Below, in pieces: positions 1,711 to 51,257 of a stretch of 64,000 nucleotides of DNA (position 1 is its first letter; every line of letters starts with the position of its first letter). The notes under the pieces are model-generated. The model searched no databases and was not told the DNA's origin. It saw nothing but the letters and a program-made list of their open reading frames with translations. This DNA comes from a phage, in assembly GCA_033286805.1 (NCBI GenBank), contig GCA_033286805.1_4727.1. The stretch is one strand, 5' to 3'. The translations under genes were made by a program, and so were the position numbers.

Positions 1711-1733
1711 CTATCAGTTAGGTAATATAGACC
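1711..1733 (-). promoter_or_regulatory. Promoter-like conserved motif, copy 1 (plus-strand text ctatcagttaggtaatatagacc)
   Basis: One of four copies of GGTAATATAG with conserved flanks, each 25-115 nt upstream of a minus-strand gene start. Confidence 0.4.
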
Positions 1734-2534
1734 TCAACTTTTTTCCAATAATGCCGCAACGTTCCGTGCGAAACGAATTACCTTATAATTGCGGGTCTGT
1801 TTGATATCTTCTTCCCCATCACTGTCACCTTCAGACGGATCTTCCCACATGAAGTCTTGTTCGTCCGCTTTCTGTAAGTAGCGGTATAACTGCACCATGC
1901 TGCGTGCGGTCGGAGAGATAGCGCGAAGCTCATCCAATTCTTCATCAGTCAACAGAACGTGCGGTGAACGCAGTGGTTCCATTGTCGTATTGCACAACAG
2001 ACGAATCAGCAGATCGACACACGGAATAACAGAACCTGGTGAGGCGATTTCTGGGTGTAACGTATAACCCCAATATACGGTGTTAAAATACGTCAAAACA
2101 GCAGGTAGTGACGGATGTTCCATCGCACGGCCAATTTGTTGTCTTACGATAGATGCACGATCGTTCAATACATCGAAAGTAATCTGCTGAGGTTCCATAA
2201 CCGCAAGTGAAATACCGTACGCGTCAGCCACACCCAGGATTTCATGAAGGGCCGAACGTTCTTCTTCGGTGGATATTGTCCCGATTGCCTTACGCCCCGC
2301 AAGGTCAATCAGCATCGGTGAAACAGCTTCTTTAACCGCATTAAAAGAAGCCTGGTAAGCGTGTTTATGAATATACAGTGTCCACGCTAATGCGCGCTCA
2401 GCCGCATGAAGCAGATCGACATAAGACAGTTCTTGATGGCATGGGCCATACACACTCACAGCAAGCTTGGTGGCTTTCTCAGAGGCTTGCATAATAACAT
2501 CTGGTGATTTAGGCATATCGCGTTCTTCTTGCAT
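1734..2534 (-). CDS. hypothetical protein (266 aa)
   Basis: Long ORF; no motif recognised. Confidence 0.5.
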   Translation of the reverse strand: MQEERDMPKSPDVIMQASEKATKLAVSVYGPCHQELSYVDLLHAAERALAWTLYIHKHAYQASFNAVKEAVSPMLIDLAGRKAIGTISTEEERSALHEILGVADAYGISLAVMEPQQITFDVLNDRASIVRQQIGRAMEHPSLPAVLTYFNTVYWGYTLHPEIASPGSVIPCVDLLIRLLCNTTMEPLRSPHVLLTDEELDELRAISPTARSMVQLYRYLQKADEQDFMWEDPSEGDSDGEEDIKQTRNYKVIRFARNVAALLEKS

Positions 2535-2816
2535 CTTTTAAATTCCTACTTAACAATAAAGTTCATATACGGCGTATGTATCCGTAGAATAATGGGTTCT
2601 GGTAAGATCTTACATCAAAATGACGGCATAAAAAGTACCTCCTTACCCACATGGGTAAGGAGGTTCGTCCATCACGACGAAAGGACGTTATGTGACGCGG
2701 TGTCCATAACGGCCCTGGTAGCAGGCATTAAAGATAACAAAAAGGATGTAAGTTGAGCTAAACCACCTAAATACGGTAACGATTACTTCCGTACACAATA
2801 TAACGCAACATCTTTT

Positions 2817-3626
2817 TTACCAATGATTAAAGCTGCCCGCTTTAACGACGTCACAACGTAGGTGGTTACGTAACTGATCCAGGAAGACAACCGGACTATC
2901 ACCAGACAACATAGCCAGCGCGTGTTGGCCGCCGGAACGAACAACAAGCTCATCAACCATTGGTGCTGTAATCGGGAGATCATACGCATCCATGATTGCC
3001 TTGGCTTCCTGTTCTACGTCTTTCTGGAACCCTTCCATCGTCGGAGAGTCATATTTGGTTGCAAACTCGATCCCCGGTAAGTTAACGTAATCGTAAGTCA
3101 TGACACGGGTCATAACACGACGGCGCTCACGTTGCCAGATCTGAGGATCGGTTAACGCGCGAACCGAAAAACACACGTTCACTAGCGGTGTTTCAAAATC
3201 TTTACGTAATGGATCACCGTACGGTCCGCAAGGAATAACATCCCCCATCACCATCACGACAGGACGACCACGACGATCACGTCCAGCTTCCTCTAACCAA
3301 ATCTTAGAAAAGCAATGGCTTACCTTCGTTTCTTCGATTCGTAATGCTCGCTGCAAAAAGCTGGTTGCATCCTGACCGATCTCTGGTTTAGGGTGACCGT
3401 ATTCCCCTTTCAACGAACGATTGCGTGCGTTTGTTTGCAATAAGCTATTTTCCAGGAACAGCGGTTTCGAACGCTCAAGTTCGTAATATTCTTCGGTATT
3501 GTTAAAACAGTTAAATCCGCCTATAACACAGGTGTAGGCACCGTCAGCATTAGGACGGATAATACCTTTCTTATTCACACCAAGATAACTGGTGCAAACA
3601 AGATTACTAATTGGTGGTTGCATCAT
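2817..3626 (-). CDS. hypothetical protein (269 aa)
   Basis: Long ORF; no motif recognised. Confidence 0.5.
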   Translation of the reverse strand: MMQPPISNLVCTSYLGVNKKGIIRPNADGAYTCVIGGFNCFNNTEEYYELERSKPLFLENSLLQTNARNRSLKGEYGHPKPEIGQDATSFLQRALRIEETKVSHCFSKIWLEEAGRDRRGRPVVMVMGDVIPCGPYGDPLRKDFETPLVNVCFSVRALTDPQIWQRERRRVMTRVMTYDYVNLPGIEFATKYDSPTMEGFQKDVEQEAKAIMDAYDLPITAPMVDELVVRSGGQHALAMLSGDSPVVFLDQLRNHLRCDVVKAGSFNHW

Positions 3627-3706
3627 AACCCCTTTATAAGCAACTGAGTGAAAAAAAGCGTTACATTCCCGCTTTTACGTCAAGAAGGTGACGCGTAAGC
3701 GTTATA

Positions 3707-4438
3707 TCACCATTCATACGATCCGGCGCACTGATGCCCCAACAGTACCAACGCGTCGTCTTTGGCCGCCAGATATTTTTCTAACGTTATCCGTGAAACG
3801 GACACATTAGAGAAATCCATCACACCTAAGCGATGATCGTAATGGTTAATTTGCATCCGGTAGTAACCTTTCTTTACCACCAGAAACTCGCCTTGACGCA
3901 ACCATAGCGGAACGTCGCCAACCTCCGCATGGATATAAAACACCGGACATTCTGTCGTAACGGAGTTTTCCTTCCCATCGCTATCTGTAATCTTCCCTTT
4001 GGGAACAGCCGCGATAAAACATTCTCCGATACGCTCGGTTTGATACCCGTTTGGATAGCGCGGATCGTGAAATAACCAATGCTCATCGCTAATATCCACA
4101 TCGGATAATAACGTACGATGTGGACGTAAGGCGATATCAAACGGAACACGATAGATAACGTACCCACCTAACCAATGGGCTAAGTGACCACCGGAATAGT
4201 ACTGCTTGATTGCGGTACTGTATCCGTATATACAACCCATCAAACTGCTAGATACACAGATCCTTGGAAACGATCCGTCTTCCATACGCAAGGTACGTTG
4301 TGGGATACGCGGCATCATCGTTTTCAGTTCGGTATCGGTGCTAATATGCAATAAACCGAAAGGAAGCGTTTTGCTCGGCACCCACGCACAACGTTCCATA
4401 ATCGATCTTGGGACAATAGTCTCGATAGACGATAACAT
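3707..4438 (-). CDS. hypothetical protein (243 aa)
   Basis: Long ORF; 1-nt gap to the upstream gene suggests translational coupling. Confidence 0.5.
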   Translation of the reverse strand: MLSSIETIVPRSIMERCAWVPSKTLPFGLLHISTDTELKTMMPRIPQRTLRMEDGSFPRICVSSSLMGCIYGYSTAIKQYYSGGHLAHWLGGYVIYRVPFDIALRPHRTLLSDVDISDEHWLFHDPRYPNGYQTERIGECFIAAVPKGKITDSDGKENSVTTECPVFYIHAEVGDVPLWLRQGEFLVVKKGYYRMQINHYDHRLGVMDFSNVSVSRITLEKYLAAKDDALVLLGHQCAGSYEW

Positions 4439-4439
4439 A

Positions 4440-5150
4440 TCACCCCCTCAGAATCGCTTCTGTTTCGCTGATCGTATCCGCAGGATAAACCAAACTACTA
4501 TCGATTGCGTTATTCACGTAACCACCCATTAAGTTGGTGATGGTGTTTGTACCACTATCGATGATGTTTCGTAATCCGATATCGATGGCTTTTAACGTGC
4601 TGCGTTCCTCATCCGAAAGCAAACGCCATGCCCGACGACGATCGTTGGGGTCACGCGTGGTGATAGAAGCCAGAACAGAATAGATGCTGCTATCCGCATT
4701 CAGTTTAACGCCTGCCAATTTCGCTGACGTGTAGAGCAGCTGATATTTTTCTTTCTCAGTGTACCACCATGGCACCTTACCGAGCGTATAGATCTCGTTA
4801 TACATCAGCCATGGGAAAGAGTTTCGCATCACGACATCGGTTGACACCAACACCGTGTCACCGGGAAGAAACACAAACTCATAAAACGGCTGGCCATCCA
4901 TGGTAATTTCACGGATGTCAGACGGGTCGATATGGAGCTGGGTCAATGCGTGGCTGACACCATACTGACCATCAGGAAGAATAATCGGGCAGCACGCACA
5001 AACCCGGTTCTCACTCCCGATGATAGATAAACCCAATCCCTCGTAACGGACGGGTGTCAGAATCGAACACCCGCCACGAGTAACAACAGATTTATCTTCT
5101 TGTATGTCCCAGTCCGCAAGCACCGCAGCACCGTTGCGGACAAGCGCCAT
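4440..5150 (-). CDS. hypothetical protein (236 aa)
   Basis: Long ORF, abuts neighbours. Confidence 0.5.
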   Translation of the reverse strand: MALVRNGAAVLADWDIQEDKSVVTRGGCSILTPVRYEGLGLSIIGSENRVCACCPIILPDGQYGVSHALTQLHIDPSDIREITMDGQPFYEFVFLPGDTVLVSTDVVMRNSFPWLMYNEIYTLGKVPWWYTEKEKYQLLYTSAKLAGVKLNADSSIYSVLASITTRDPNDRRRAWRLLSDEERSTLKAIDIGLRNIIDSGTNTITNLMGGYVNNAIDSSLVYPADTISETEAILRG

Positions 5151-6674
5151 TTACACCTCGCTAATCTGGATAACGTAAAGCTGCTGGGCCACGTAATCGG
5201 TGGTCAGATGCATCGTTGCGATGGTCGCCGCTTCGAACACCGTGAGTTCAGGACGTTCACGCATAATCAAATCGATCTCGTCGATGAGACGGTTAACGCC
5301 TTGAGCGTCTTCATGATGCATCGTTTTCACGTAAAGTGTACGGAAATACTGCTGGAAGTTAGCTACGTCGGTATCGGTAAGGTTAGCAACTTCACCACGC
5401 ACAATTTCCATGACCTTCTTACGGGCATCTTCATCGAGGTCGACCGTAATCAGATCAGCGAACACACCCTGCAACGCCAGCGCGTATGCACGTAAGCGGT
5501 TTGCGGCTTGCTGGCTGGCTTTCATGTTGATGTAGTTACGGTAATGCTGCATGAAGCCTGCACCGTTAGCCAACAGTTCATCTTTACTGATGAGTTCACG
5601 CTCTAACAGGACGGCTGCGGTTAACGCTTCCGGTGAACCACCTTCTTGCAGATAACCCATGTAGACGTCTGCGTTAACGAAAATCGTCATCGTTGACGCG
5701 TCTTCAGCACGTTGAATCTGAGAAGCCGACGGTGCAGAAAGAATCAGCTCACCACGCTCCATACGCAGGATACGATCACGACCGACGCGTGCCATCCCGT
5801 TGATCGCCGCAGCACGAGCTTGTTGCATTTTAGCGCGGTAGTTTTCAAGCATCATGTCGTTGCCGTCCTGGATATCTTCCAGCAGGTTAACGGCCCACAT
5901 ATAGCAGAGGAATGCAGGAGTTGCCGCAGCGCGGGAACCGTGGAATGCAACATTATCGCTATCCGGATATGTAATCAGATAAGCGGTGTTGTTCGAAGAA
6001 GGAGCGGAACCACGGAAGAAATAGTTGTAGATGTCTTCCAGTGCCTGATCGCTCATCCCTTCCGTTGCTTGCTGTACAAAACGATCCAGGTTTTCATTAC
6101 CGGTATACAGCAACGTACGCAGCTTATCACCGGTGATAAACGCAAGCTTTCCGGTTGGAGTGAAATCGTTATTAATCGAAATCAAGCCATTGAGGTCATA
6201 ATCGCTAACTAAGGCCTGGTACTCTTCGGAGTTATAAAACTCAGGATAGTAACTCAGACTTACTGTCGGGATCAGTTTCGGTGCCAGGATGATCGAATCG
6301 ATACGTTTTTCCAGTTCCGGGTACAGCGCACGGCATTTCGGCAGGATGGTGTTACGCGCCAACTCTTTGGCGTACACCACTTTTTCCACCACGTCTTGAA
6401 CTGCGGTCTGTAAAACTTCATCGTGGATATAAACCTCGCGTTCGCTGGCAGGTGCTACAGCGCCATCTTCGGTTTCATCAAGTGTTTCAGCAACAACCAT
6501 ACGTTCAGCACTGAGCTGCACCAACGCGTCAGCGTCTTCCGGTGGTTGGTTCCAGTGCATGGTTTCACAAACCGCGGCTAACGGAGTACCTGGAATCGCA
6601 GCGACGATTTGGTTACGTTTGATAAACCCTTCGACAATAGGCTCAACAGCATAAACGGTTTTATTGGTGATCAT
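5151..6674 (-). CDS. hypothetical protein (507 aa)
   Basis: Long ORF; start overlaps the stop of the upstream small ORF (TAATG). Confidence 0.55.
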   Translation of the reverse strand: MITNKTVYAVEPIVEGFIKRNQIVAAIPGTPLAAVCETMHWNQPPEDADALVQLSAERMVVAETLDETEDGAVAPASEREVYIHDEVLQTAVQDVVEKVVYAKELARNTILPKCRALYPELEKRIDSIILAPKLIPTVSLSYYPEFYNSEEYQALVSDYDLNGLISINNDFTPTGKLAFITGDKLRTLLYTGNENLDRFVQQATEGMSDQALEDIYNYFFRGSAPSSNNTAYLITYPDSDNVAFHGSRAAATPAFLCYMWAVNLLEDIQDGNDMMLENYRAKMQQARAAAINGMARVGRDRILRMERGELILSAPSASQIQRAEDASTMTIFVNADVYMGYLQEGGSPEALTAAVLLERELISKDELLANGAGFMQHYRNYINMKASQQAANRLRAYALALQGVFADLITVDLDEDARKKVMEIVRGEVANLTDTDVANFQQYFRTLYVKTMHHEDAQGVNRLIDEIDLIMRERPELTVFEAATIATMHLTTDYVAQQLYVIQISEV

Positions 6675-6907
6675 TACTGCGCTCCCTCCAACGCATTACT
6701 ACCTACGGGTTCTTTGGTTTCCAGACGGCTGTTTAAGCGCGCAGCAACCGCATCTTCCAATCCCAACGGCATAACCTTTTTGTTCACGTCAGGATCGGCG
6801 GCATCATTACCAACGGTTTGACGTACGACCTCAGCAACCAACGTTACCGCGTTCGTCAGCGCAACAAAGCTCGCTGCTCGAGCCGTGTTAAGTTGTTCTT
6901 GGTTCAT
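6674..6907 (-). CDS. small hypothetical protein (77 aa)
   Basis: ORF with stop/start overlap to the 507-aa gene. Confidence 0.4.
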   Translation of the reverse strand: MNQEQLNTARAASFVALTNAVTLVAEVVRQTVGNDAADPDVNKKVMPLGLEDAVAARLNSRLETKEPVGSNALEGAQ

Positions 6908-6982
6908 TCACTTTTCCTTTTAATGTCAGAGCATCGCATTCTTGACGTACGTCAAGAAGGTACTGCGTTCAGCGAAATAAAC

Positions 6983-7008
6983 GAGCAGGGGCATGAAGCC
7001 CCCTGCTC
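6983..7008 (-). terminator. Intrinsic terminator hairpin (GAGCAGGGG...CCCCTGCTC) flanked by T-rich tracts on both strands
   Basis: 9-bp GC-rich stem with 8-nt loop directly after the stop of 7009..8232; GTTTATTTCG follows on the minus strand. Confidence 0.6.
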
Positions 7009-8232
7009 TTATTTGGCGTCGTTAAAATAAATATCAACAGCTCGTTCCGTTGCGTAGAGGAGACCAAGATTCACAGTCCCAACCACTTCCGGTGAACCGA
7101 TGATACGGTTAGCGATACTGGTGCCACTGAAGATAGCATCAAGGGTGTGCCCGTCTTCGGTTTTGTTCACACCATGACCCACGGAAGAGACAACGGATTT
7201 CGCTTGAGCTGCGAAGGTACCTTTATCGCCCATCCCCGCACCAAGGTCGTAACGCATGAAAATACGGATGGCGATCTGGTTCTCGCCTAACGGATTACCG
7301 TCTATTCTCACGTTACTATTATTGATACGCCCCGTAGTTGCTTCGTTGAGTTTCAGTTCCTTAACGCGTTTAGCTCGTGCTTTATCCGCTTCACCGACGA
7401 GCGCCGCCATGGTTTCACTCATATCCTCAATCTGAGCGCGGTACAGTACATCGATCTGTACAACTTCACCATGAACGTCAGCACGTGGGTTATACTGACT
7501 CATACGACGTAATGCTTCAACGGCTTCCTGACTCTCATCACTCAGATCGGTCGCAATCGGTTCTTCCAGTGTTGCAAGGATCGTTCGTGGTTCAACATGA
7601 TCGCCGATTTTCACGAGACCACGAATGTTGAGATGAGCGTCAACAATGAGCGTACGGCTCTTAATCGATGGTGTTACGAGACGATCGGCAAGATTGTCGA
7701 AGATATACGAACTGTCCTCGTGAGTCTCTGGAATATCCAGAATACCGACAAGAGACAGAACACCTGCGCGCCAAACAACCTGACCTGGGTTCCACCAATC
7801 GCGTTTAAAATAAAGACGATGGAAGACCACCACATCCTGATCCTTAACGCGATCCCCGACTTTATAATCGGTAATGAGATCGTGAGGATAATACTTACCT
7901 GGTCCTTTCCCGATTATCGTACCGAGCTGGAAAACCTCTTCCCCTAACTCTGGATCGTCGTATTGTATCGTCAGCGCAGTTTTGGTGACCTTCTTAACAA
8001 CACCGTCACCTTGGGCGGCAGCTGCAAAGAGTTTACCAACACGATGCGCGATGACAGTCTCGCCACCCGTACGCCATGGTTGTACATCGTAACCTTCAGC
8101 AGCAATCATGCGGTTGTGCTGTATACCTATAAATACGAGACGCTTTGGCGAAATCCAGCAAAATACATTTACTGTGCGTCTGGATTGTTCAGATAAGGTC
8201 GTTAATCTTATCCCGGAGGCGATGACAGGCAC
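7009..8232 (-). CDS. Multisubunit RNA polymerase beta-like segment (middle region; probable downstream exon of a split beta gene)
   Basis: IQHNRMIAAEG...VQPW...RTGGETVIAHRVG resembles the bacterial beta HDDANRALMGANMQRQAVP...VGTGME region; MGDKGT...GHGVNK resembles GDKxxGRHGNKG; ORF opens only 3 codons upstream of a GTG. Confidence 0.6.
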   Translation of the reverse strand: MPVIASGIRLTTLSEQSRRTVNVFCWISPKRLVFIGIQHNRMIAAEGYDVQPWRTGGETVIAHRVGKLFAAAAQGDGVVKKVTKTALTIQYDDPELGEEVFQLGTIIGKGPGKYYPHDLITDYKVGDRVKDQDVVVFHRLYFKRDWWNPGQVVWRAGVLSLVGILDIPETHEDSSYIFDNLADRLVTPSIKSRTLIVDAHLNIRGLVKIGDHVEPRTILATLEEPIATDLSDESQEAVEALRRMSQYNPRADVHGEVVQIDVLYRAQIEDMSETMAALVGEADKARAKRVKELKLNEATTGRINNSNVRIDGNPLGENQIAIRIFMRYDLGAGMGDKGTFAAQAKSVVSSVGHGVNKTEDGHTLDAIFSGTSIANRIIGSPEVVGTVNLGLLYATERAVDIYFNDAK

Positions 8233-8609
8233 ACCGCCTCCCGCTTACGTTCTCACGCAAGAGCAGACTATATCACATCTCGTTTCAAACGGTGCTTCTT
8301 CAGCACCTCAACGAGAGTTCACTTCTTCCCAGCGCATCCAGCGCCATTCTCTTATCCAAGGAGAATGCCTCACTCGAGGGGTACCGGGGGATGAATCCCT
8401 TAGTCGTTGAACCTTTACCTTAGAACGCTTCACAGCGATCCTTAGGTACTTGGCTGCGGATTGTCCTTAAGCTATTATCTGTTTTTATAACCATACCGTC
8501 TTTCTTTTCAGAATCCGTTTTGGTCGATAACAGCGATGGATGTCTTCGCAATTCAGTGAATCTCATCTACATGTCGCCACATAGACGGACCCTGCTATTA
8601 AAAGCGTTA
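8231..8609 (-). ncRNA. Group I intron (ORF-less), approximate boundaries
   Basis: Minus-strand reading gives P-like GAAUUGCGAAG (about 8543-8556), Q AAUCCGCAGCCAAGUACCUAAGG (about 8447-8466), R GGUUCAACGACUAAGGG (8394-8414), S GAUAUAGUCUGC (8267-8276), in canonical order with GACUA/UAGUC P7 pairing; stop codon immediately at the putative 5' splice site. Confidence 0.75.
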
Positions 8610-11600
8610 ATCATCTCTGTCGGCAGCAGGTACTGCAAGTGCCGATGTACTCATTATTGACGAGCTACCATCCGTTTTCTCGTCGTAGGGTTTCGTTTCA
8701 CCGTATACAGACACAATGTTTGCGTTAGGTGCGAGGTAAGCAGAAATACCTACGTCCCCACTATCCTTCGTACCTTCGGATACAACACCAATGTCCGACT
8801 TGTCGTATTCACGATCGCGTGCGCGTCGAAGCGATGTCTTTGAACGACCCCCGATACCGGTCATCGTTGCTTCTTCACCCTGCTTGATATCCAACATCGG
8901 GTTGGTTTCATCGATCACGATGGAAGCGCTGTCGTCGAGAATTTGGTTCCAGACGCTTACCGGACTGATTGAGATTTTCTGGCGATTTCCTTGACTGCTG
9001 TTCTCATTCTGACGAATAGCGCCAACCAGATCCTTATACACCAATTCAGCGAACTTATCGTACGTTTTAAAACGTTGGTAGTTCACATCGTTGGTGTTAG
9101 GTGCCCAGTCATCCAGAAGCAGTTCAACAGCACGCAGTAACAACATGGCGAAATCGGTAGGTTCTCCCATGTTCTGTAGCAACGTACGGCTTACCGGATC
9201 AACGAAAAGACGCTCCATGAGTTCAAGTTCGCGTAAATGACGAACCTTAAGTCCAGCACCATCGACAACGTTAAAATAGATATCTCGATTGTCAAAAGCG
9301 CCGCGAGCGTAACCAATGTAGTTACGGTACTCGTTAAACCCACCCAGCAACAACGTCGTCATGCGATCGTCTTTACTGAAAATCAAACTTTCGTCGTCAA
9401 AGCTCACCGCGAATTCATCGGGTGCTAAACCCATACGAGAACCGCGAGGTACCGTACGATAGTTTGCTTTAAGATGTTCTAATAACGGGGTAAGTCCACC
9501 CAGATAACTTAGAACAACACCGACCGGAATACGTACACCCATGAATTCAAGATCGGCAGCTTCGATCGGCATCTTAGCCGCATTGATACCGAAGAAATCG
9601 GGGAACGTCCCTACAGGTGTTGGTGTTTGTCCTGACTGACAGATATAGAGCTGATTGCGTTTATCGATTGCTAAGAATTCACCCAGCGTGTTACGCGCAA
9701 ACGTCAGGAGCCCTTCGGCTAACTGTTCGTTGAACCGATCTTCCCCGATGAACTCCGGCAATGTTTTTATATCGAGACGTATATCCCAATCAGCAAATTG
9801 GATTTGGGTATAGTTGCGTGCAAGCACAGCGAAGTAATACGGGACTTTGACGGCCGGATCAAAGACGTTACCACGTTTTAACGTGGTTAAGGGTGAGGAC
9901 TTATCGTAATACATCGCCGTAAGTTGACGTGTTAGCCAACGACCGGCGTTATTAACGACGCGCTCTGAACGTTTAACAAACACCTTACCGTAGGCGGTAC
10001 TCAACGCAACTTCGGATGACGACACCTTTCTGATAGGTTTATCGACGCGTTGTTTACGCATCCGGTACTTGATGCCGTTAACGACATAAATGCCATCCTT
10101 ACGAACCTTCGGCAACATCACCGGGAACGTGGTTGGGACACCGCCTACAGGAGCCAGTTTAATCGTGATGACTTGATAATCCCCCATCACGTCAACAACG
10201 TCTTCGACTTTATAACCCGTAACAGGGTAACCTGCTTGCTGCACCGCAACAACGGCAGCTGCGATGTCCTTTTGCATCACGTGTTCAACGTAATGTTTAT
10301 CCCACACCGCAAGCGTCGATTTACATAGGCTCTTATCGACGATAACATCCGCTTCCGGCATAACCTTTGCTGGCGCTAATTTCGCGGCTTTTGGTTTAAC
10401 TTCAACATACTCAGCAAGTGTTAATCCAGAACCGTCGGGTGCTTCGATTTCGTGGATAGCGTCAGCATTACGCATCGCTGCTTTATATTGAACGCCGCTT
10501 AACTGACCCGCATCCGCCAGATCGCTCGCGCGCACCAACACCGCATCTGATAACGACTGAATATATTCACCGTGCGTTTTTGGTAACGTTGCCGCGTCAA
10601 AGACATCAACCTTTTCTTCTTCGGTATTGTCGGTAACGACTTCGAAGAGATCGTCAGTAATGTCCTGATCTTCATCGGGTTGGAAATCTGGTTGTACTTC
10701 TACCCCGGGTACTTCACGGACATCTTCGAACGAGCGTTCTACAATGGCGTTCCACGCATCAGCGTCATCGTCTTCATCCGACCCACCAACCAACTCCGCT
10801 TCTAACTCATCGGGATCAAGAACAGTGGCCAGATCCTCACCGTTAGGAAGCACGACGTCGCGATCATCGTACTCCGCATCCGGGCTGTCCGCAAGAATAT
10901 CTCGCTCTTGACGAAGAACCTGTTCCTCTTCTTGTTTCTGTTCTTCTTCATTCGCGCTCTGCGACCACAGACGTGTTACCGCCATCATCCAACGACGCTG
11001 GAAGGTTTCAAGTGTCGTTTTATCGAGTTCTTCCCCTTCCTTAACAAGCCCGGTACGCCATTCCTCCAGTAGACCAAGATTCAACGTAAAGAAGTACACA
11101 CCGTCTGTAAATACAACGTTAAGCTTATCCAGTGTGGCTCTGTCTAACGAAGCCATCGTGCTGTTCTCACGATCGGTTCCCAACCAGCGGAAGAAGTCAA
11201 AGAACGATAGCTCCTCCGGCGTGGCGAAATTCATGAGGTTGTTACGGGTCGGTGCCTGTTGCGTGGTACGCATCAACGAAATCTTCGGCAATGTTGACGG
11301 TATACGGAACAACAGAAAGTGTTGACGATCGCTTTGCTGTGCGATTTCGTTGGCTTTCGACCAAATTGTTTTACGCACGTTGAACCATTCATCATACCAA
11401 CGGGTGAGCGTTGGACGATAAATGTACATGTGGTTAAGATGCGCGTAGTTAGCAACGATCTGAGCGTTGATGTTTTTCTCCACCGCGCTCAGATCGGTAA
11501 CCAAACGAAAACGACGATGTGACGCACGATAATCCAATTTCGCTCGTGGGAGTTGGAATCGTTGATCACGTCGAGGTGCGCCCTGTTTGGTTGCGAGATC

Positions 11601-11816
11601 ATCAGCAAACGAAATCCATAGTTGAGCACTTTCTTTACTCAGCATGTATTCGTTTTCTGGAGGACCTATCAATGAAGGATCCGTTGCGGTGTAATGATAG
11701 ACAGCATAACGCGGCAGCTGCAATAGCTGCACTAAACGTAATCTTGGTGATAGTAGCTCTTGGTAGCGTCTGACACCAAACTGTCGGTAGTAATCAAGGT
11801 ATTTAAGTTTTGCCAT
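8607..11816 (-). CDS. Multisubunit RNA polymerase beta-like subunit, N-terminal portion (1069 aa)
   Basis: C-terminal TGIGGRSKTSLRRARDREYD...GVVSEGTKDSGDVGISAYLA matches the bacterial beta GPGGLTRERAGFEVRDVH...[20 protein letters not shown] region; GGAG RBS before the ATG. Confidence 0.65.
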   Translation of the reverse strand: MAKLKYLDYYRQFGVRRYQELLSPRLRLVQLLQLPRYAVYHYTATDPSLIGPPENEYMLSKESAQLWISFADDLATKQGAPRRDQRFQLPRAKLDYRASHRRFRLVTDLSAVEKNINAQIVANYAHLNHMYIYRPTLTRWYDEWFNVRKTIWSKANEIAQQSDRQHFLLFRIPSTLPKISLMRTTQQAPTRNNLMNFATPEELSFFDFFRWLGTDRENSTMASLDRATLDKLNVVFTDGVYFFTLNLGLLEEWRTGLVKEGEELDKTTLETFQRRWMMAVTRLWSQSANEEEQKQEEEQVLRQERDILADSPDAEYDDRDVVLPNGEDLATVLDPDELEAELVGGSDEDDDADAWNAIVERSFEDVREVPGVEVQPDFQPDEDQDITDDLFEVVTDNTEEEKVDVFDAATLPKTHGEYIQSLSDAVLVRASDLADAGQLSGVQYKAAMRNADAIHEIEAPDGSGLTLAEYVEVKPKAAKLAPAKVMPEADVIVDKSLCKSTLAVWDKHYVEHVMQKDIAAAVVAVQQAGYPVTGYKVEDVVDVMGDYQVITIKLAPVGGVPTTFPVMLPKVRKDGIYVVNGIKYRMRKQRVDKPIRKVSSSEVALSTAYGKVFVKRSERVVNNAGRWLTRQLTAMYYDKSSPLTTLKRGNVFDPAVKVPYYFAVLARNYTQIQFADWDIRLDIKTLPEFIGEDRFNEQLAEGLLTFARNTLGEFLAIDKRNQLYICQSGQTPTPVGTFPDFFGINAAKMPIEAADLEFMGVRIPVGVVLSYLGGLTPLLEHLKANYRTVPRGSRMGLAPDEFAVSFDDESLIFSKDDRMTTLLLGGFNEYRNYIGYARGAFDNRDIYFNVVDGAGLKVRHLRELELMERLFVDPVSRTLLQNMGEPTDFAMLLLRAVELLLDDWAPNTNDVNYQRFKTYDKFAELVYKDLVGAIRQNENSSQGNRQKISISPVSVWNQILDDSASIVIDETNPMLDIKQGEEATMTGIGGRSKTSLRRARDREYDKSDIGVVSEGTKDSGDVGISAYLAPNANIVSVYGETKPYDEKTDGSSSIMSTSALAVPAADRDD

Positions 11817-12494
11817 GGGTTAGGCTCCACGAGGTCCCGTTAAGTTGCGTAATAGGAACGCAACCGTATCGTAACCAATATCGATGTTGAATTTATTTTT
11901 ACCACTTACCCAGAAAGCTCGCTTCTTGTGCGAGTTGGTAATTTCGTCAATAGCTTCCATGGAATAAAGAACGTTAACCGAGACCGTATCACCGTCGAAC
12001 CTTGTCTTCGCCTCAGTTCGCTACGCTGAGACCGCCTGCATGGATACGTACATCACAGGCTGCTTGCACTTTCATGCAAGAGGAGACTATATCAAACCGG
12101 CAGCACAACCTGCTACGGTAACCTACACTTCGAAGACGCTTGTCCTCTACAGGGTGGTAAATCCCTTAGTCGTTGAACCTGCGTTGTTTCACATTCTTGC
12201 AAACAAGAATGCCGTATTACTACGCAACAACCAGGCTGCTGATCGCCCATTGTTTCGCACCTTAGCACCGCTTACGCGGCTTTTCTTTCAGCCTAAGCCT
12301 CTTACGGAGGTAGTGCATCTCAACTGTTGTTTCTGCCTTTCGGCACCTCATGGGTCGTTGAGCTTTAGGGGTTCCCAGCAATTCGTAGGTTTTTCAAGCA
12401 CTCTCTTTCGAGAATACCGGACCAATTCAGTTAGTAAACAACATTATTACCATCCCCCATTCTCAAGGGTTAATTTTTTAAAATGATAGAATTA
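11814..12494 (-). ncRNA. Group I intron (ORF-less, about 680 nt), approximate boundaries
   Basis: Minus-strand P-like AAUUGCUGGGAACC (about 12370-12386), Q AUCAGCAGCC (about 12231-12250), R GGUUCAACGACUAAGGG (12160-12180, identical 21-mer to the other intron), S GAUAUAGUCUC (12085-12094). Confidence 0.7.
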
Positions 12495-13985
12495 ATGTGT
12501 TTTTGGGCTAACTCGAAGATCACCGCCTAAACCGGCGAGGTATGGCGCAGGGACAATAGTAGTTTCTACGAACGAAGCATTAGGTAACCAGTCGGGGTAT
12601 TCCCACGCAATAAATCGCTCGTCCGTTATTGGTTCCCAGTTGCTATCCAATTCGGTTTTCGGTTTTGCAGCGACGGTTGTACGCGCGTAACAGGTTAACG
12701 GAATGACGGATTGCATACCCGATACCGGATAACGTGTTACCATCGCTGCCAGGTTATTCCAGTACTTATATCCGGCAATATAGATAAGCTCGGTGTACGT
12801 GATGGGGTGAACATCCGCGCCGGGTTTATTCAACATCTCTGGGGGTAATTCACTCATACCACGGAACAGTCGAAACGAATCATTGTTCACATAGACAAGA
12901 CAAAGATATCGTCCATTAACCATGATAGGTTCGTTACGCACACCAGGATCGCTTAAGGTGTTCAGTAAACGTTCTATTCCGTCCCATGTTGTAAAGTCAT
13001 CGATGGTGTCTGGATCAAGAGTGACACGTTCACGTTCCATCGTTTCGGTATCGATAAGTTCAACTTCTGTAACATCACGGACAAATATTTCCTGCAAAAT
13101 CCCCGTACGTAACGCGTGTTGTGTTACAGGGAGAGCAGCTTTACTCATCTGGTATAACCCTAACTGAACTGCGGTACAGGAAGGCTGGTTAGGCGACCCT
13201 AGTACCTCCGTTGTGGGGTTAATTGCCGAAATAACGTTACGGGTTGAGTTCCAAACACGACGTGAGCCGAACTTCCCTTGGAAGATCCCTTTCTTACCTT
13301 GGAACATATCCAACAGTAAAGCGTAGATATCGTTGAATGTTCTCTGTAAGCTCCAGCGCTGGCCGTCGTAAACGGGATCGGAATAATCTTTTAATCCATC
13401 AGGGACGGTGTTAGAAATTGCAAGGAAACGACGATACAACTCCGTGATTTCTTGCTCGCTTTCATACCCACCTTCTTTTACTTCTATTTCACGTAAGCCC
13501 GCAGGCAATACCAGTAAGTGACGAGTCATCGCTTTGAACATGTTCTCTTCGACGACTTTAATTCGTAGCTCTCGTTGAGCTGAACCCGTTGAAACGAACT
13601 TGATATCCGCGACGTGTTGTGCAAAGAACCCATATCCTGTTTGTCCTGTTAGCGCATCGGACGCAACGAAGTCGCGTTGTTCAGGATCCCACCGAGCGTA
13701 CGCCTTCCCCGACATGATATCACCATAGAGGTGTTTTAGTCGAATGAGGCGGTCGTAAATGACAGGATGCAGGATTTCAACCTTGCATTCAATCACCGCA
13801 AATCGACGGTCTCGATCTTCACTACCCGCACTACCAAAGATGGTGTAAGAATAGAAACCGTCATCGTGGAAATTACCGGTGCTTGGGTCACGGATGCTCA
13901 TGCTCGTGATCTTGGGAAGAAAACGTAACTGCTGTTTATCGAGGTGTAAAATGCTAATGTTAAACGGCTCTCTGACTTTAGCCAT
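12492..13985 (-). CDS. Multisubunit RNA polymerase beta'-like subunit, N-terminal fragment
   Basis: DGFYSYTIFGS ~ beta' DGLFCARIFGP; FAVIECKVEILHPVIY ~ MGHIELASPTAHIWF; LLVLPAGLRE...ELYRRF ~ VLPPDLRP...LYRRV; GKKGIFQGKFGSRRVWNSTRNVIS ~ [23 protein letters not shown]. Start placed at the ATG at 13985 with AAGAGGAG RBS; ORF track extends to 14027. Confidence 0.7.
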   Translation of the reverse strand: MAKVREPFNISILHLDKQQLRFLPKITSMSIRDPSTGNFHDDGFYSYTIFGSAGSEDRDRRFAVIECKVEILHPVIYDRLIRLKHLYGDIMSGKAYARWDPEQRDFVASDALTGQTGYGFFAQHVADIKFVSTGSAQRELRIKVVEENMFKAMTRHLLVLPAGLREIEVKEGGYESEQEITELYRRFLAISNTVPDGLKDYSDPVYDGQRWSLQRTFNDIYALLLDMFQGKKGIFQGKFGSRRVWNSTRNVISAINPTTEVLGSPNQPSCTAVQLGLYQMSKAALPVTQHALRTGILQEIFVRDVTEVELIDTETMERERVTLDPDTIDDFTTWDGIERLLNTLSDPGVRNEPIMVNGRYLCLVYVNNDSFRLFRGMSELPPEMLNKPGADVHPITYTELIYIAGYKYWNNLAAMVTRYPVSGMQSVIPLTCYARTTVAAKPKTELDSNWEPITDERFIAWEYPDWLPNASFVETTIVPAPYLAGLGGDLRVSPKTH

Positions 13986-14230
13986 GGAGACACTCCTCTT
14001 TACCACCACCGGCTGCGGCGGTATCATCTGAACACACGAGAGACGTAATGGGTGATGGCGTCACCCATCGCTTCCTTGCTTGAGGCGAGGAAGTTATTAG
14101 GTTACGTACCTGCCTGATTTTATCAGGTGGGCGATGTGTGAAGTTACGCTTCAACATTATCAATGCCGAAGGTAAACTTCGTGCATCACGTTCCAACGTA
14201 ACATGGGAACGTATCGAACTGGAGGTATAC

Positions 14231-24292: not shown

Positions 24293-24850
24293 TTAAACTT
24301 CTTCGTTTTCTGAACCTAATGATTCAGCATCTGGATCGTCAACAGGAATTGTTGCATCAAAATACCGTTTCGTATGCGTGGTTGTATATCCTACGCTATC
24401 TGTGATGGAAATCGTAAACGTGACTTCCCTTGCACGGATTAAGCGTAGTTTATTCATGAAGTTACGGAACGGCATCGATCCCCGATTCAACTCCTTAATG
24501 ACGTTTCCCCGAATACTGGAAATGTCTTTATTCGTTTTATCAGGGTGTCGTTTCTTCACATCACGCATATGTCGGGTAATATACGAATTGAGCTGATTTG
24601 CGCCGATCCCTCTCTCCGTATAAATCTGCAACAGGAACTCCGTAAGGAAATCCTGTCTGCCCGTAGGCGTCCAGAAGTTGTTACCGTGGTTATAGTTAGT
24701 CGCTCGTCCTCGATTACTTTGAGGATTTTCATCATCGCTTTCGTCACGACGCTTAAGCGGATTAATGCGTGCGCGAAAAGAGACTTCGTTATATTTATCG
24801 ATCATATTACACCAGTGTATTGACTGAGTGCGAAGGTTAGGAGTTCGCAA
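24293..24850 (-). CDS. hypothetical protein (185 aa)
   Basis: ORF; overlaps the upstream ORF, so the true start is probably internal. Confidence 0.45.
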   Translation of the reverse strand: MRTPNLRTQSIHWCNMIDKYNEVSFRARINPLKRRDESDDENPQSNRGRATNYNHGNNFWTPTGRQDFLTEFLLQIYTERGIGANQLNSYITRHMRDVKKRHPDKTNKDISSIRGNVIKELNRGSMPFRNFMNKLRLIRAREVTFTISITDSVGYTTTHTKRYFDATIPVDDPDAESLGSENEEV

Positions 24851-25317
24851 CAGTCTCTCGCTAGTTTCCTTGTTTTGCGTAATCCATAAGCCGCATCCAA
24901 ATCGTCACGTTCCGCCAGCGCGTCTAACCACGTCGCAAGTATGCGTCCATACTCGATAACGTCACGCATGAGAACGTCGAACTGGATAACACGACCATCG
25001 GCATCAGCAAGCCAACGATTGAATGTGATTTGTGGTGCTAGTATTGCATATGTTCTCTCCTCTAATGCGATTATGTTTATGTTGCCTTCGTTATCGAACG
25101 CTTGATGCCAACGGCGAAGGTCAAGCATCAACGACTCAGCGTCCATATACCACAACGGTAAATACGTTTTACGTGCAACGCGTATATCGTAGATGTTGTG
25201 AACCCAGGACGTTGTTTTGTAAAGCAACAAGAGTTCGTTTAACCGTTGCCTATCATCTTGAAACGTCTTCCTTTTATAACGTTGGAACGCACGCCTCAAG
25301 AAAAAGCGATGTAACAT
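24802..25317 (-). CDS. hypothetical protein (171 aa)
   Basis: ORF with promoter-like motif about 85 nt upstream. Confidence 0.5.
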   Translation of the reverse strand: MLHRFFLRRAFQRYKRKTFQDDRQRLNELLLLYKTTSWVHNIYDIRVARKTYLPLWYMDAESLMLDLRRWHQAFDNEGNINIIALEERTYAILAPQITFNRWLADADGRVIQFDVLMRDVIEYGRILATWLDALAERDDLDAAYGLRKTRKLARDCCELLTFALSQYTGVI

Positions 25318-25401
25318 GGCATCACCTATGTATCATTCTTGCAGGCATCAATGAAGCCATCACAAGAAGGTAACGTTATACGTCGCCTTCATGACTGTCA
25401 T

Positions 25402-25420
25402 CATGAAGGTAATATAGTCC
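25402..25420 (-). promoter_or_regulatory. Promoter-like conserved motif, copy 2 (catgaaggtaatatagtcc) in a divergent intergenic region
   Basis: Shares GGTAATATAGTC with the copies at 1711, 38520 and 51230. Confidence 0.4.
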
Positions 25421-25450
25421 TGTTATTTTTTTCAATACGGAGAATGTAAA

Positions 25451-37787: not shown

Positions 37788-37840
37788 AAGAAAAAACGAT
37801 ATAAAGCAAGGTCCTCTGATATCAGAGGACCTTGGATCAA

Positions 37841-38497
37841 TTAGCTTGCAGCTTCTTCATTTGTATCAGGTTTGCTTCCCCCTAACAAACCGTCAAACAG
37901 ACCCGTATGTTTCAGGTAGAAGAGAGCGATAGCGCCCATTGCTGCTGCGCTCGTCGCCGTTAACGCAACCCCAGCACGATACTGCCATTTACGGTCAGGC
38001 TTTTGATCAAGAGCCATACGACGCATGTATTCAGCCTCTGCTTCATTCCGATGAATTTCGGATTCAGCCAAGCGGGCTAAGGTATCGCGGTCAAGGTTAT
38101 CATAACGTACGTTCATGGTGGTTTCCTCTTGTTTGGAAGTTGATTGCTTAGTGGATTCTTGGTCAACAGTCGTTTCAGATGGTTCAAACGGCTGGTTGTT
38201 CATTTTCTGATCTTTATTGGTCATGATAGACTCCTTCGATTTTTGAGATGAAATTGATTTAAACCATCGTGGATGGCGGTATTCAGTTTTACATGTGCAG
38301 TTAAGTTTCTCGTGCAGGAAAGCGTAAAAACGTTTTGCGCCTACACGTAAGGCTTTCAGCATTACCCATCCACGAGCACTCAAACGGTGTAGCTGTTGCG
38401 GTATGTCTAGTTTCCTAGCCAAGCGAAAGTATCTTTCAATCACTTCGATAGGAAACCATTGTTGTTCCACATCGGTGAGACTGAAAGTCTTATCCAT
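37841..38497 (-). CDS. hypothetical protein with C-terminal transmembrane helix (possibly two genes, internal start near 38224)
   Basis: Internal ATG at 38224 preceded by AAGGAG; C-terminal hydrophobic GVALTATSAAAMGAIALFYL. Confidence 0.45.
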   Translation of the reverse strand: MDKTFSLTDVEQQWFPIEVIERYFRLARKLDIPQQLHRLSARGWVMLKALRVGAKRFYAFLHEKLNCTCKTEYRHPRWFKSISSQKSKESIMTNKDQKMNNQPFEPSETTVDQESTKQSTSKQEETTMNVRYDNLDRDTLARLAESEIHRNEAEAEYMRRMALDQKPDRKWQYRAGVALTATSAAAMGAIALFYLKHTGLFDGLLGGSKPDTNEEAAS

Positions 38498-38519: not shown

Positions 38520-38541
38520 TTCACTTAAGTAATATAGCCGT
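38520..38541 (-). promoter_or_regulatory. Promoter-like conserved motif, copy 3 (tcacttaagtaatatagccgtg)
   Basis: Near-identical over about 24 nt to copy 4 at 51230; 23 nt upstream of the minus gene start at 38497. Confidence 0.45.
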
Positions 38542-38629
38542 GAAAAATGTTGGAATAAGTTAAATACCGCAACCGCAGCTAATTTTATAGGCTTTTAGCC
38601 TAAACCAATCATCTTCGGAATCATCATCT

Positions 38630-47129: not shown

Positions 47130-47149
47130 AAAAAAGAAATGCTATACAA

Positions 47150-47184: not shown

Positions 47185-47199
47185 ATTATAGTTTATTTA

Positions 47200-47637: not shown

Positions 47638-47695
47638 AGAACGACGTATAACGGTTTGTTTTAATTTCTAATGGGTTTCCTTATCTAAGATTGAA

Positions 47696-48058: not shown

Positions 48059-48059
48059 A

Positions 48060-48488: not shown

Positions 48489-48503
48489 GTTCGATTCCTC
48501 GTA

Positions 48504-48947: not shown

Positions 48948-48977
48948 GGTAGGTTCCTCTTGATAGATGGTAGTAAC

Positions 48978-48997
48978 GGGGATACCGCGGTATCCCC
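48978..48997. promoter_or_regulatory. Perfect 20-bp palindrome GGGGATACC-GC-GGTATCCCC
   Basis: Read directly; related GGATACCC-TG-GGGTATCC at 62562-62579, both about 31-33 nt upstream of a minus-strand start codon. Confidence 0.45.
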
Positions 48998-49004
48998 TAA
49001 GTCT

Positions 49005-49905: not shown

Positions 49906-50080
49906 CAGTTAGCTCCTAAATAGATCTACAACGAACTTTCGATGGAAGGGAGTATGTTTCCCTTCCTTGGGTTCGTTTATTGCGTTACGAAGCTTTACAG
50001 CTTGCGTAAACCACAACGGTTCCATTGTTGATTACCTCAACATCATCCTGGTCCGTTTGATCGCAAGTTTGGTGTCCGCA

Positions 50081-50425
50081 TTAACTCCCTCTGTGGTGCG
50101 AAAACAAAACATCTAACTGTTCCCGTTGTTCTTTTAAGCATGCAGGAAGCTGGTCTTCCCGTACCGTTCCGATTTCCAACGTGATGTACCAACGTTGTTC
50201 TGAGGCCTGCCATTGAAAACTGCTCTGTAACCGCAGGATGTTAGGATCACGTACCTTGTTTGCACTGTAACGGTTGAACCAATCCAGGTATTCTGCTTTC
50301 CCTTCCTCGTCGGCAACGTAACGCTGCACGCTGTTCTTCCCTTTGTTCTCGTATCCCGTTGCACGTATCATGCGAACGTTTCTCCTGTAATGTGTTGTGG
50401 GCGTTGTAGCATGGTAACATCCCAT
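50081..50425 (-). CDS. hypothetical protein (about 100-114 aa)
   Basis: ORF; overlaps the upstream gene, start uncertain. Confidence 0.4.
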   Translation of the reverse strand: MGCYHATTPTTHYRRNVRMIRATGYENKGKNSVQRYVADEEGKAEYLDWFNRYSANKVRDPNILRLQSSFQWQASEQRWYITLEIGTVREDQLPACLKEQREQLDVLFSHHRGS

Positions 50426-51150
50426 TGTACGATCCGGCTCCGGCTTACCAGCATCATGACGGATTCATCATCAAGCCCTGGTTGCGCAACCGGCAACCAA
50501 CGTTCGTTAAGCACCTTCGCTTCAACGCGTTTCTTGCGGGGATTGTAACGCACCTCGCTGACCCAAGCGAATCCAAGCGGATGCACAACCCGTGGATAAT
50601 ACATGCGAAGCAATTGATGCATTTGATCCATTGCCTCCAAGCTCGCATCCGCCAGGTAAGGTTTCACCATGGCAAGCTTTTTGGTGTAATACGTTCCAAC
50701 GGTATGGTTCGCCCACCCAGGAAGCGCGTGATGGAATCCTACCTGTAATTGTGTATTGCCGTTCACCTTCAGCCAACCGTATTGTCCCGCCGCACGTCCC
50801 TCGTCAGTATCGATCCATGTAAGTATATCGATGAACGCACGATCGGCGATCTCGATGCGTTCCACCCGTTCATCCAACGCACCACGTACCACGAATCCGC
50901 TCGCGCTCAGCCGTGCAGGATGCTGGCTACGATGTGCGTACCAATTCTTGTTGCCGGTAAGCAGGTAAGGATACAAGTGCGCACCACGCCAAACAACCTT
51001 TCCGTTCGTCCCGTCGACGCAACGTACACGCATCCCAGCCTGACCGCTGCTGTAGCATGCTACCCTCACGCATTCGTTTTGAACATCGCTCGGTAACGCC
51101 AGGTATTCATCTCCAGTAAACATGGTATCAAAAATCAATGCTTCTTTCAT
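50368..51150 (-). CDS. hypothetical protein (260 aa), first gene of the minus-strand operon
   Basis: Long ORF directly downstream of the large non-coding region and promoter-like motif copy 4. Confidence 0.5.
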   Translation of the reverse strand: MKEALIFDTMFTGDEYLALPSDVQNECVRVACYSSGQAGMRVRCVDGTNGKVVWRGAHLYPYLLTGNKNWYAHRSQHPARLSASGFVVRGALDERVERIEIADRAFIDILTWIDTDEGRAAGQYGWLKVNGNTQLQVGFHHALPGWANHTVGTYYTKKLAMVKPYLADASLEAMDQMHQLLRMYYPRVVHPLGFAWVSEVRYNPRKKRVEAKVLNERWLPVAQPGLDDESVMMLVSRSRIVQWDVTMLQRPQHITGETFA

Positions 51151-51229
51151 CTAAAAAGATCCTCTGTTTTTCACGTTAATTAAACAACGTATTGATTTCT
51201 ATTTGACACAATACGAACATTGTACGTAT

Positions 51230-51257
51230 CTATCACTTAGGTAATATAGTCGTGAAA
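51230..51257 (-). promoter_or_regulatory. Promoter-like conserved motif, copy 4 (ctatcacttaggtaatatagtcgtgaaa)
   Basis: About 80 nt upstream of the start at 51150; shares extended identity with copy 3. Confidence 0.45.

Follow-up and report, generated by a model that had tools for sequence, protein, structure and literature searches.

Background

The early promoters of phiKZ, read by its virion RNA polymerase (vRNAP), were reportedly described by Ceyssens et al. in 2014. In all jumbo phages that encode an RNAP, the early operons are preceded by an AT-rich motif of ~10 nt whose centre lies near -10 (PMC7598289). The consensus early promoter of phiKZ is tatattaaaaaaaatttaagatgTATATTACaaatgtg (supplement of PMC12676376), accompanied by a 'T-rich motif upstream of -19', and the early motif is found at the mapped primary transcription start site (TSS) of PHIKZ054 (both Wicke et al. 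2020, PMC8244752). Transcription starts 6 nt after the consensus in phiKZ and phiR1-37, and the early promoters of Bacillus phage AR9 are AAATATATATTAT-(6N)-G+1 (PMC5312081). In phiKZ the late signal is T-3ATG+1, and for middle transcription the signal is an AT-rich/TACT element, weak and placed at about -22 to -24 (PMC7598289, PMC8244752).

A stretch of phage DNA of 64,000 nt (the window) was analysed for a repeated element upstream of minus-strand genes. The window shares ~97% identity with Escherichia phage Goslar, which belongs to the Chimalliviridae and is a nucleus-forming jumbo phage. The element has the core TATATTAC, the same as in the phiKZ consensus early promoter, aaaaaaaatttaagatgTATATTACaaatgtg. 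The four copies are very probably early promoters read by the injected virion RNAP, with transcription from the G seven nt after the core. The signal is already known from the relative phiKZ, so that the finding is correct but ordinary.

The element in the window

Four repeats had been claimed in the original prediction, and exactly four copies of a 27-nt element were found, all on the minus strand, against ~0.14 expected by chance (Table 1). Their consensus on that strand is tTTTCACGgCTATATTACyTAnGTGAt, and the TATATTAC core is present in 4/4. On the plus strand GGTAATATAG was counted three times in the window (0.07 expected; three or more in 0/100 shuffles), and TTAGGTAATATAGYC with up to two mismatches had exactly 4 matches, at 1718, 25405, 38525 and 51237 (0.14 expected; four reached in 0/100 shuffles). 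In a position-weight-matrix (PWM) scan of the window the four copies scored 30.7–41.8 and no further site reached 12; the top score in the randomised Goslar-like sequence used as background was 17.9. The reported near-identity of copies 3 and 4 was reproduced, with agreement at 22/24 positions over cacttaRgtaatatagYcgtgaaa, and the reported spacing of 25–115 nt to a start codon agrees with the ATGs listed in Table 1. All four sites are intergenic, co-oriented with and directly upstream of minus-strand genes, and Rfam and tRNA scans gave nothing at any of them.

Three more minus-strand TATATTAC octamers in the window (23408, 24576 and 37570), all within genes, were considered as promoters and rejected; they are without flanks and score below 12 in the PWM scan, and are chance matches.

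Table 1. Coordinates of the putative promoters, their predicted start sites, first downstream genes and vRNAP genes in the window.
Feature	Position	Strand	Details
Putative promoter copy 1	1713..1739	-	27-mer AGTTGAGGTCTATATTACCTAACTGAT (1739-1713); core TATATTAC 1729-1722
Predicted TSS, copy 1	G at 1715	-	117-nt leader to ATG 1598
First gene after copy 1	1119..1598	-	159 aa, of unknown function; identical in Goslar (HOV27_gp214)
Putative promoter copy 2	25400..25426	-	27-mer ATAACAGGACTATATTACCTTCATGAT (25426-25400); core 25416-25409
Predicted TSS, copy 2	G at 25402	-	85-nt leader to ATG 25317
First gene after copy 2	24802..25317	-	Goslar gp200, 171 aa, without family match
Putative promoter copy 3	38520..38546	-	27-mer TTTTCACGGCTATATTACTTAAGTGAA (38546-38520); core 38536-38529
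Predicted TSS, copy 3	G at 38522	-	25-nt leader to ATG 38497
First gene after copy 3	37841..38497	-	Goslar gp004, 218 aa, without family match
Strong intrinsic-terminator-like hairpin	37807..37834	-	12-bp stem; directly 3' of the copy-3 gene
Putative promoter copy 4	51232..51258	-	27-mer CTTTCACGACTATATTACCTAAGTGAT (51258-51232); core 51248-51241
Predicted TSS, copy 4	G at 51234	-	84-nt leader to ATG 51150
First gene after copy 4	50368..51150	-	Goslar gp021, 260 aa, without family match; starts small-gene operon
vRNAP genes, three subunits	4440..14027	-	gp210, gp207, gp205
gp210, vRNAP subunit	4440-5150	-	
gp207, vRNAP subunit	7009-11816	-	split by group I intron
gp205, vRNAP subunit	12492-14027	-	37% identity to PHIKZ180, E 2e-86
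gp196, fourth vRNAP subunit	27478-28152		

Copy 1, which is identical in Goslar (201954-201928), overlaps in its upstream half with the stop codon of the gene before it (1734-2534). Copy 2 lies within a divergent intergenic region common to the plus-strand gene 25451-26080. Copy 3, the nearest of the four to the Goslar consensus, forms a compact one-gene unit with its gene and the hairpin behind it, which carries a terminator annotation in Goslar. Downstream of copy 4, eight small minus-strand genes follow in a run from 51150 down to 47200; the Goslar orthologue of this copy is TACATTAC...CTTCATG, and each variant base occurs in other Goslar copies.

The Pfam search matched 0/4 of the first downstream genes. 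In PHROGs only 1119-1598 was matched, to a family of unknown function, and a PDB sequence search with the same gene gave no match. This gene had been called codon-optimised, and its E. coli optimal-codon fraction is indeed 0.777, against a window mean of 0.49 (sd 0.07). A copy number of >200 per virion preparation has been reported for gp214; such high-copy association with virions is unexpected for a purely early gene.

Distribution in the Goslar genome

A motif search across the complete genome, which had been proposed as a check, was performed on Goslar and yielded 12 strong sites and one weaker site, 13/13 on the minus strand. By PWM the 12 sites score 26.6–42.7, against 12.5 for the next best and a random maximum of 17.9, and the pattern TA[TC]ATTAC-N5-TG occurs 13 times, always on the minus strand, versus ~1 expected. 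The motif is real and its genome-wide distribution non-random: 12/13 sites are intergenic, 13/13 are co-oriented with the downstream gene, and all 13 cores lie 32–212 nt upstream of a minus-strand start codon. The genes behind them include chmA (nuclear shell protein), a PHIKZ068 homologue, an HD-domain gene and several small-gene runs. Core position 3 is C (TACATTAC) in 5/13 sites. A number of 12–13 promoters is low for the 175 genes expressed at 5 min and below the 28–32 of phiKZ; either the units are long, or weaker early promoters escaped detection.

The close relatives found were Goslar and two Goslar-like IMG/VR genomes, 94–97% identical; being too similar, and ascertained through the motif itself, they are unfit as a test of conservation, and distant chimalliviruses were used instead.

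Comparison with phiKZ and other chimalliviruses

The element matches the phiKZ consensus beyond its core, as both have an upstream A-tract with TTT and a TG 6–7 nt after the core. In the window, in Goslar and in phiKZ, the sites have an AAAAAA..TTTCA or TTTTCAC block 5–20 nt upstream of the core, and within a 41-kb stretch of phiKZ five sites, upstream of PHIKZ054, 068, 036, 041.3 and 058.1, have the core and both flanks. The TG at +6/+7 after the core is present in 22/22 non-redundant sites, which would fit a G+1 like that of AR9 and phiKZ. In both phiKZ and Goslar-type phages the sites are intergenic and co-oriented with small-gene operons.

The element also stands before the same genes as in phiKZ and is conserved across the family. 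It precedes chmA in both Goslar and phiKZ (PHIKZ054), and likewise the homologous pair Goslar gp175/gp174 and PHIKZ068/069 (E 1e-33 and 2e-14). Upstream of chmA it was found in phiKZ, PhiPA3 (with one core change), RAY, Eowyn, RSL2, Proteus phage 10 and Goslar, phages among which ChmA identity is only 22–25%.

Some differences from phiKZ were seen. The bases between T-tract and core are AAGATG/GAGATY in phiKZ and CACGGC/CAGGGT in the Goslar type, C is tolerated at core position 3 in Goslar, and ~13 sites are detectable in Goslar versus 28–32 in phiKZ. Leaders here measure 25–117 nt, often longer than the 31–40 nt typical of phiKZ.

These comparisons bear on the reading of the element as a repeated non-promoter sequence, such as a binding site of a regulator or of a packaging or replication protein, a mobile-element remnant or a recombination hotspot. 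Duplication or gene conversion could explain why some copies are near-identical over ~35–40 nt (the Goslar gp004 and gp182 sites agree at 35/35 positions over a span that covers the core, the 22 nt before it and the 5 nt after it), and in copy 2 the predicted start lies within a perfect 8-bp palindrome. Against this, the orientation to the downstream gene is fixed at 13/13 Goslar sites, the apparent TTCAC/GTGAA inverted repeat shows no covariation between sites, and the same position is held before orthologous genes in phages with proteins ~23% identical, which is unexpected for mobile remnants. We regard this reading as extremely improbable.

The early promoters of coliphage N4 vRNAP are DNA hairpins with a short stem and a 3-nt loop. 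They resemble the present elements in being promoters of a virion-injected polymerase that transcribes early genes, and differ in that the N4 enzyme is single-subunit and its signal a hairpin. An N4-like hairpin was considered here, with the arms TTCAC...GTGAA, which stand on either side of the core in the best copies; these arms are 15 nt apart, weak and without covariation across 12 Goslar sites, and the hairpin reading was therefore dropped.

AR9 offers a further likeness in its AT-rich element with TATATTA, followed by six nt and then a G start, and in both cases the reader is thought to be a virion-packaged multisubunit RNAP. The core ends in T in AR9, where the present element has C, and AR9 has the longer alternating AT run; AR9 is a phage with uracil-containing DNA from outside the chimalliviruses.

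The polymerase proposed to read the element

The window encodes 4/5 Goslar virion RNA polymerase subunits (Table 1), and all five have been detected in Goslar virions. In Goslar, expression of chmA and 175/249 genes is seen at 5 min post infection as well as in infections stalled at the stage of a vesicle with vRNAP only. The original prediction of a phage-polymerase-specific, possibly early, promoter class is supported by the early expression of Goslar chmA, as it is by the phiKZ core and flanks, the shared gene positions and the lack of a sigma-70 pair.

A host sigma-70 promoter with TATATT as its -10 hexamer would be a similar kind of signal, sigma-70 -10 elements being likewise AT-rich hexamers near -10; the reader here presumably differs in having no sigma homologue. 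TATATT agrees with TATAAT at 5/6 positions, and TTGAAA or TTGGAA stands upstream at three sites. However, when ~1 kb around each copy was scanned with the consensus, no -35/-10 pair on the minus strand with a 16–18 nt spacer overlapped any of the four, as had been claimed from the sequence. Where TTGAAA occurs, just 13 nt separate it from TATATT; an extended -10 (TGn) is absent, and conservation extends through the start site (AC-N5-TG), which is not a sigma-70 requirement. Infection of the phiKZ type has moreover been described as independent of the host transcription apparatus (PMC8244752), and a sigma-70 promoter hardly deserves credence.

The promoters of the second phage polymerase (nvRNAP), known from phiKZ middle and late transcription, are likewise phage-polymerase-specific and come from the same virus family. 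If nvRNAP, or both enzymes, read the element, it would be a middle or continuous promoter and not specifically an early one. There are precedents in the continuously expressed genes of AR9, which have both early and late promoters (PMC5312081), and in PHIKZ054, which has both an early and a middle promoter (PMC8244752). The virion-associated proteins of highest abundance include the products of gp214 (behind copy 1) and gp158 (the second gene downstream of the Goslar 142800 site), which suggests expression continuing late. The known nvRNAP signals, T-3ATG+1 and the weak AT-rich/TACT element, nevertheless differ from the element and are absent from the four copies, with TATG at the predicted start in 0/4 (post-core sequences CTAACTGAT, CTTCATGAT, TTAAGTGAA and CTAAGTGAT), whereas the element equals the phiKZ early consensus base for base. 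This alternative appears very unlikely, and vRNAP rather than nvRNAP is the probable reader.

Under early transcription by vRNAP, the elements would belong to the promoters of the first transcription wave in phiKZ-like phages, the phage here being a Goslar-like chimallivirus. The recognised signal would span ~27 nt in three parts, namely an A-tract/TTTCA block, the invariant TATATTAC core near -10 and the TG 6–7 nt after the core. Transcription would start at the four G residues of Table 1 and run leftward on the minus strand, with the host sigma-70 polymerase dispensable. Small genes without known function would be expressed from the four units, among them gp214 with its very strong codon adaptation. 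We infer both the exact start sites and the early timing of these units. The legend of a Goslar figure has the displayed sequence begin 91 nt upstream of the chmA ATG, which is 1 nt upstream of the Goslar chmA 27-mer; the predicted start is 66 nt upstream of the ATG. As the legend may give a display window and not a mapped end, the 66-nt start is neither confirmed nor refuted by it.

Significance

The current picture of chimallivirus transcription is unchanged and is extended to another genus. For nucleus-forming jumbo phages the principal E. coli model is Goslar. No Goslar promoter was found described in the searchable literature, and a full-text literature search for TATATTAC gave unrelated papers only, among the matches listed.

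A stronger claim would be that TATATTAC-N5-TG, as essentially invariant in at least seven chimallivirus genera, is a family-wide marker, and that the ~13 Goslar sites form a distinct immediate-early class; we consider this improbable. If true, the immediate-early regulon of any chimallivirus could be read from sequence, and in Goslar it would include the genes of the very abundant virion-associated proteins gp214 and gp158. These proteins would then be made from the first minutes and also packaged, and proteins both early and injected would constitute a functional class not described so far.

The near-invariance of the core across the family constrains DNA recognition by the sigma-less virion polymerase. 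The predicted start sites would mark the transcription units that are made first in the early infection vesicle, and the ~13 units could serve as a short list for host-takeover functions. The phiKZ consensus has already been used to drive transgenes and selection markers in engineered phage, and the element described here, compact at ~40 nt, could be used for their early expression in engineered Goslar-like phages.

Relation to Goslar and sequence scans

The first 8 kb of the window are 97.9% identical to Escherichia phage vB_EcoM_Goslar, a nucleus-forming jumbo phage (237 kb) in the family Chimalliviridae. In a whole-window comparison, window 1-36025 corresponded to Goslar 200216-237304 and window 35974-64000 to Goslar 1-27821, with 94-98% identity and a few indels. 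Two stretches were without a megablast match to Goslar: 49106-50117, within the small-gene operon downstream of copy 4 of the motif (gp018-gp020 region; gp numbers are Goslar names), and 57032-59083, inside the 864-aa gene 56712-59306 (Goslar gp026). Both represent local replacement or strong divergence in a genome otherwise 94-97% identical to Goslar.

For the motif scan, a weight matrix was built from the Goslar sites, and the Goslar genome was assembled from five joined stretches.

Coordinates of the putative promoters and neighbouring features (window positions unless stated)
Feature	Location	Strand	Details
Copy 1	1739-1713	minus	predicted start 1715; predicted leader 117 nt; first gene 1119-1598
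Copy 2	25426-25400	minus	predicted start 25402; predicted leader 85 nt; first gene 24802-25317
Copy 3	38546-38520	minus	predicted start 38522; predicted leader 25 nt; first gene 37841-38497
Copy 4	51258-51232	minus	predicted start 51234; predicted leader 84 nt; first gene 50368-51150
Thirteenth, weaker candidate early promoter	Goslar 187639-187632 (L005, Goslar 150001-200000: 37632-37639)	minus	TACATTACCTTCCTG
16-codon ORF	1647-1697	minus	MKKESSDFILLIDRKN; in the copy-1 leader, predicted start to gp214 start codon
Perfect 8-bp palindrome	25387-25408	minus	CTTCATGA-N6-TCATGAAG
Group I intron	8147-8640 (Rfam match 8244-8611)	minus	RF00028, 55.3 bits
Second group I intron	12063-12447 (junction 12423-12518)	minus	56.5 bits
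Inverted repeat	51528-51568
Inverted repeat	51733-51799
Inverted repeat	51964-51995

A conserved element in the window and in Goslar

Motif copies were found at 1718, 25405, 38525 and 51237, where the original prediction had placed them. Read on the minus (transcribed) strand, about 27 nt are conserved, as tTTTCACGgC-TATATTAC-yTAnGTGAt, around the core octamer TATATTAC (a point-mutant form would be, for example, TAGCTTAC). GGTAATATAG occurs three times in the window against 0.07 expected, and the 15-mer, allowing two mismatches at most, matches exactly these four positions against 0.14 expected, a count reached by none of 100 shuffles. The weight matrix recovered only the four copies (scores 30.7-41.8), with nothing else in the window at 12 or above; its maximum on randomised sequence was 17.9. 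Three further TATATTAC octamers in the window were rejected, being inside genes and without the flanks. Between copy 4 and its orthologue in Goslar, 4 of the 27 positions differ; because each variant base occurs in other copies (TACATTAC, CTTCATG), these changes fit constraint rather than decay.

The genome-wide motif search that had been proposed as a check was run on Goslar and returned 12 weight-matrix sites (scores 26.6-42.7; next best 12.5). The pattern TA[TC]ATTAC-N5-TG gave 13 matches where about one was expected, all on the minus strand. Twelve of these 13 are intergenic, the remaining one being inside an annotated ORF of 62 codons, and the core ends 32-212 nt from the minus-strand start codon downstream. 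The thirteenth, weaker candidate is 59 nt upstream of gp225 and is without the usual upstream TTTCAC block. Among the genes served are chmA (nuclear shell protein), which is followed by an nvRNAP (non-virion RNA polymerase) subunit gene, gp175/gp174, an HD-domain gene heading a long small-gene run, and several other small-gene runs. None of the plus-strand Goslar genes, many of them annotated as virion structural, is preceded by a copy.

Relation to the phiKZ early promoter

By sequence, the closest known counterpart of the element is the phiKZ early promoter, whose consensus is tatattaaaaaaaatttaagatgTATATTACaaatgtg (supplement of PMC12676376). Its octamer is identical to TATATTAC, and the two share an upstream A-tract and TTT, as well as TG at the sixth and seventh positions past the core. 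The phiKZ early motif has been described as an extended -10 box that includes T-rich sequence beyond -19 on the upstream side, and it is found at the mapped primary start site of PHIKZ054 (PMC8244752). A 41-kb phiKZ stretch contained five such intergenic sites, upstream of PHIKZ036, 041.3, 054 (chmA), 058.1 and 068.

In Goslar, gp175 is homologous to PHIKZ068 (E 1e-33) and gp174 to PHIKZ069 (E 2e-14), so Goslar and phiKZ have the element at two shared gene positions; the proteins of these phages are only about 23% identical. Further phages with the element, 70-158 nt before chmA, are PhiPA3 (where the core reads TATATCAC), RAY, Eowyn, RSL2 and Proteus phage 10. Taken together, 22 non-redundant sites give the consensus ..A.T..AAaa..TTTcA.g.c TATATTAC.ta..TGa, with the TG invariant. 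A repeat without promoter function is an unlikely explanation for the copies, because their orientation is fixed and they are syntenic with those of phiKZ. No description of a Goslar promoter was found in the Goslar literature searched. The promoter class is well known and its phiKZ core is the same; the Goslar-type element would add to that class.

Predicted start sites, timing and polymerase

Chimalliviridae nucleus-forming jumbo phages carry two multisubunit RNA polymerases, of which the virion enzyme (vRNAP) enters with the injected DNA and transcribes early genes and the nvRNAP transcribes later genes. According to reviews, an AT-rich motif of about 10 nt precedes the early operons in all jumbo phages that encode an RNAP; it is centred near -10 and is taken as the vRNAP promoter (PMC7598289). 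AR9 early promoters read AAATATATATTAT-(6N)-G+1, and transcription in phiKZ and phiR1-37 starts 6 nt past the consensus (PMC5312081). When TATATTAT is aligned with TATATTAC, the invariant G of GTGA falls at +1, the base at all four predicted starts. In Goslar the corresponding starts would be at 201930, 226681, 2553 and 15053, alongside nine other predicted starts. From the motif we infer the start sites, the early timing of the four units and the reader, so that copies 1-4 would be early promoters used by the vRNAP injected with the DNA.

Of the five vRNAP subunits that have been detected in Goslar virions, four (gp210, gp207, gp205 and gp196) have homologues encoded in the window, and ORF 12492-14027 is 37% identical to PHIKZ180. 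At 5 min, chmA and 175 of 249 Goslar genes are expressed, as they are when infection is halted at the vesicle stage. The one statement bearing on a Goslar start site, which has a sequence begin 91 nt before the chmA ATG, is ambiguous. Set against 175 genes detected early, thirteen promoters seem few, so there must be long units or weaker promoters that escaped detection.

Recognition by the host sigma-70 holoenzyme is not supported. In line with the original remark that the element does not resemble a sigma-70 pair, no minus-strand -35/-10 pair overlaps any of the four copies; an occasional TTGAAA is separated from TATATT by only 13 nt, and conservation continues through the start site. The nvRNAP is a rival candidate as reader, but the phiKZ middle signal (a weak AT-rich/TACT near -22) and late signal (TATG at the start) are both absent. 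Useful outputs are the predicted start sites, a short list of immediate-early units and a compact early-expression element for use in engineered Goslar-like phages.

The copy-1 unit

Gene 1119-1598 (minus strand) is identical to HOV27_gp214, and its product has no Pfam match and no PDB sequence match. The description of this gene as codon-optimised was borne out: its E. coli optimal-codon fraction is 0.777 against a window mean of 0.49 (sd 0.07), by far the highest in the window and about 4 sd above the other 52 genes. Copy 1 may be subject to dual or continuous expression, in favour of which are this codon usage and the listing of gp214 at >200 copies per Goslar virion preparation. The gene has an early-type promoter upstream, yet its product is reported to be one of the most abundant virion-associated Goslar proteins without an assigned function.

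The copy-1 leader is identical in Goslar; the 16-codon ORF in it lacks an obvious ribosome-binding site. The second gene of the unit, 602-1015 (minus; Goslar gp215), matched Pfam DUF488-N3a (PF22751, E 1.3e-9) and PHROG 2450; of the eight genes tested downstream of the four promoters, no other had a family match.

Surroundings of copies 2 and 4 and group I introns

The palindrome is directly past the copy 2 core and spans the predicted start; its stems are conserved in Goslar, with a single-base difference in the loop. Possibly it is an operator in the divergent intergenic region. Between gp022 and the copy-4 promoter, 860 nt (51151-52011) contain no convincing ORF and gave no Rfam or tRNA match. 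This stretch is 93% identical to Goslar, against 98.6-99.3% for the other three promoter regions (outside alignment ends). The last of its three inverted repeats resembles a terminator hairpin and is just past the upstream gene.

The first group I intron splits a vRNAP subunit gene (gp207 homologue) into ORFs 7009-8232 and 8607-11816; this stretch of about 494 nt has no counterpart in Goslar, where gp207 is one continuous CDS. The second is between the gp207 and gp205 homologues, in the same place as an annotated Goslar intron. Past this shared intron, the window lacks the HNH/NUMOD homing-endonuclease gene of about 1.5 kb that trails it in Goslar (gp206, 212238-213710), so intron and endonuclease content varies among Goslar-like phages.
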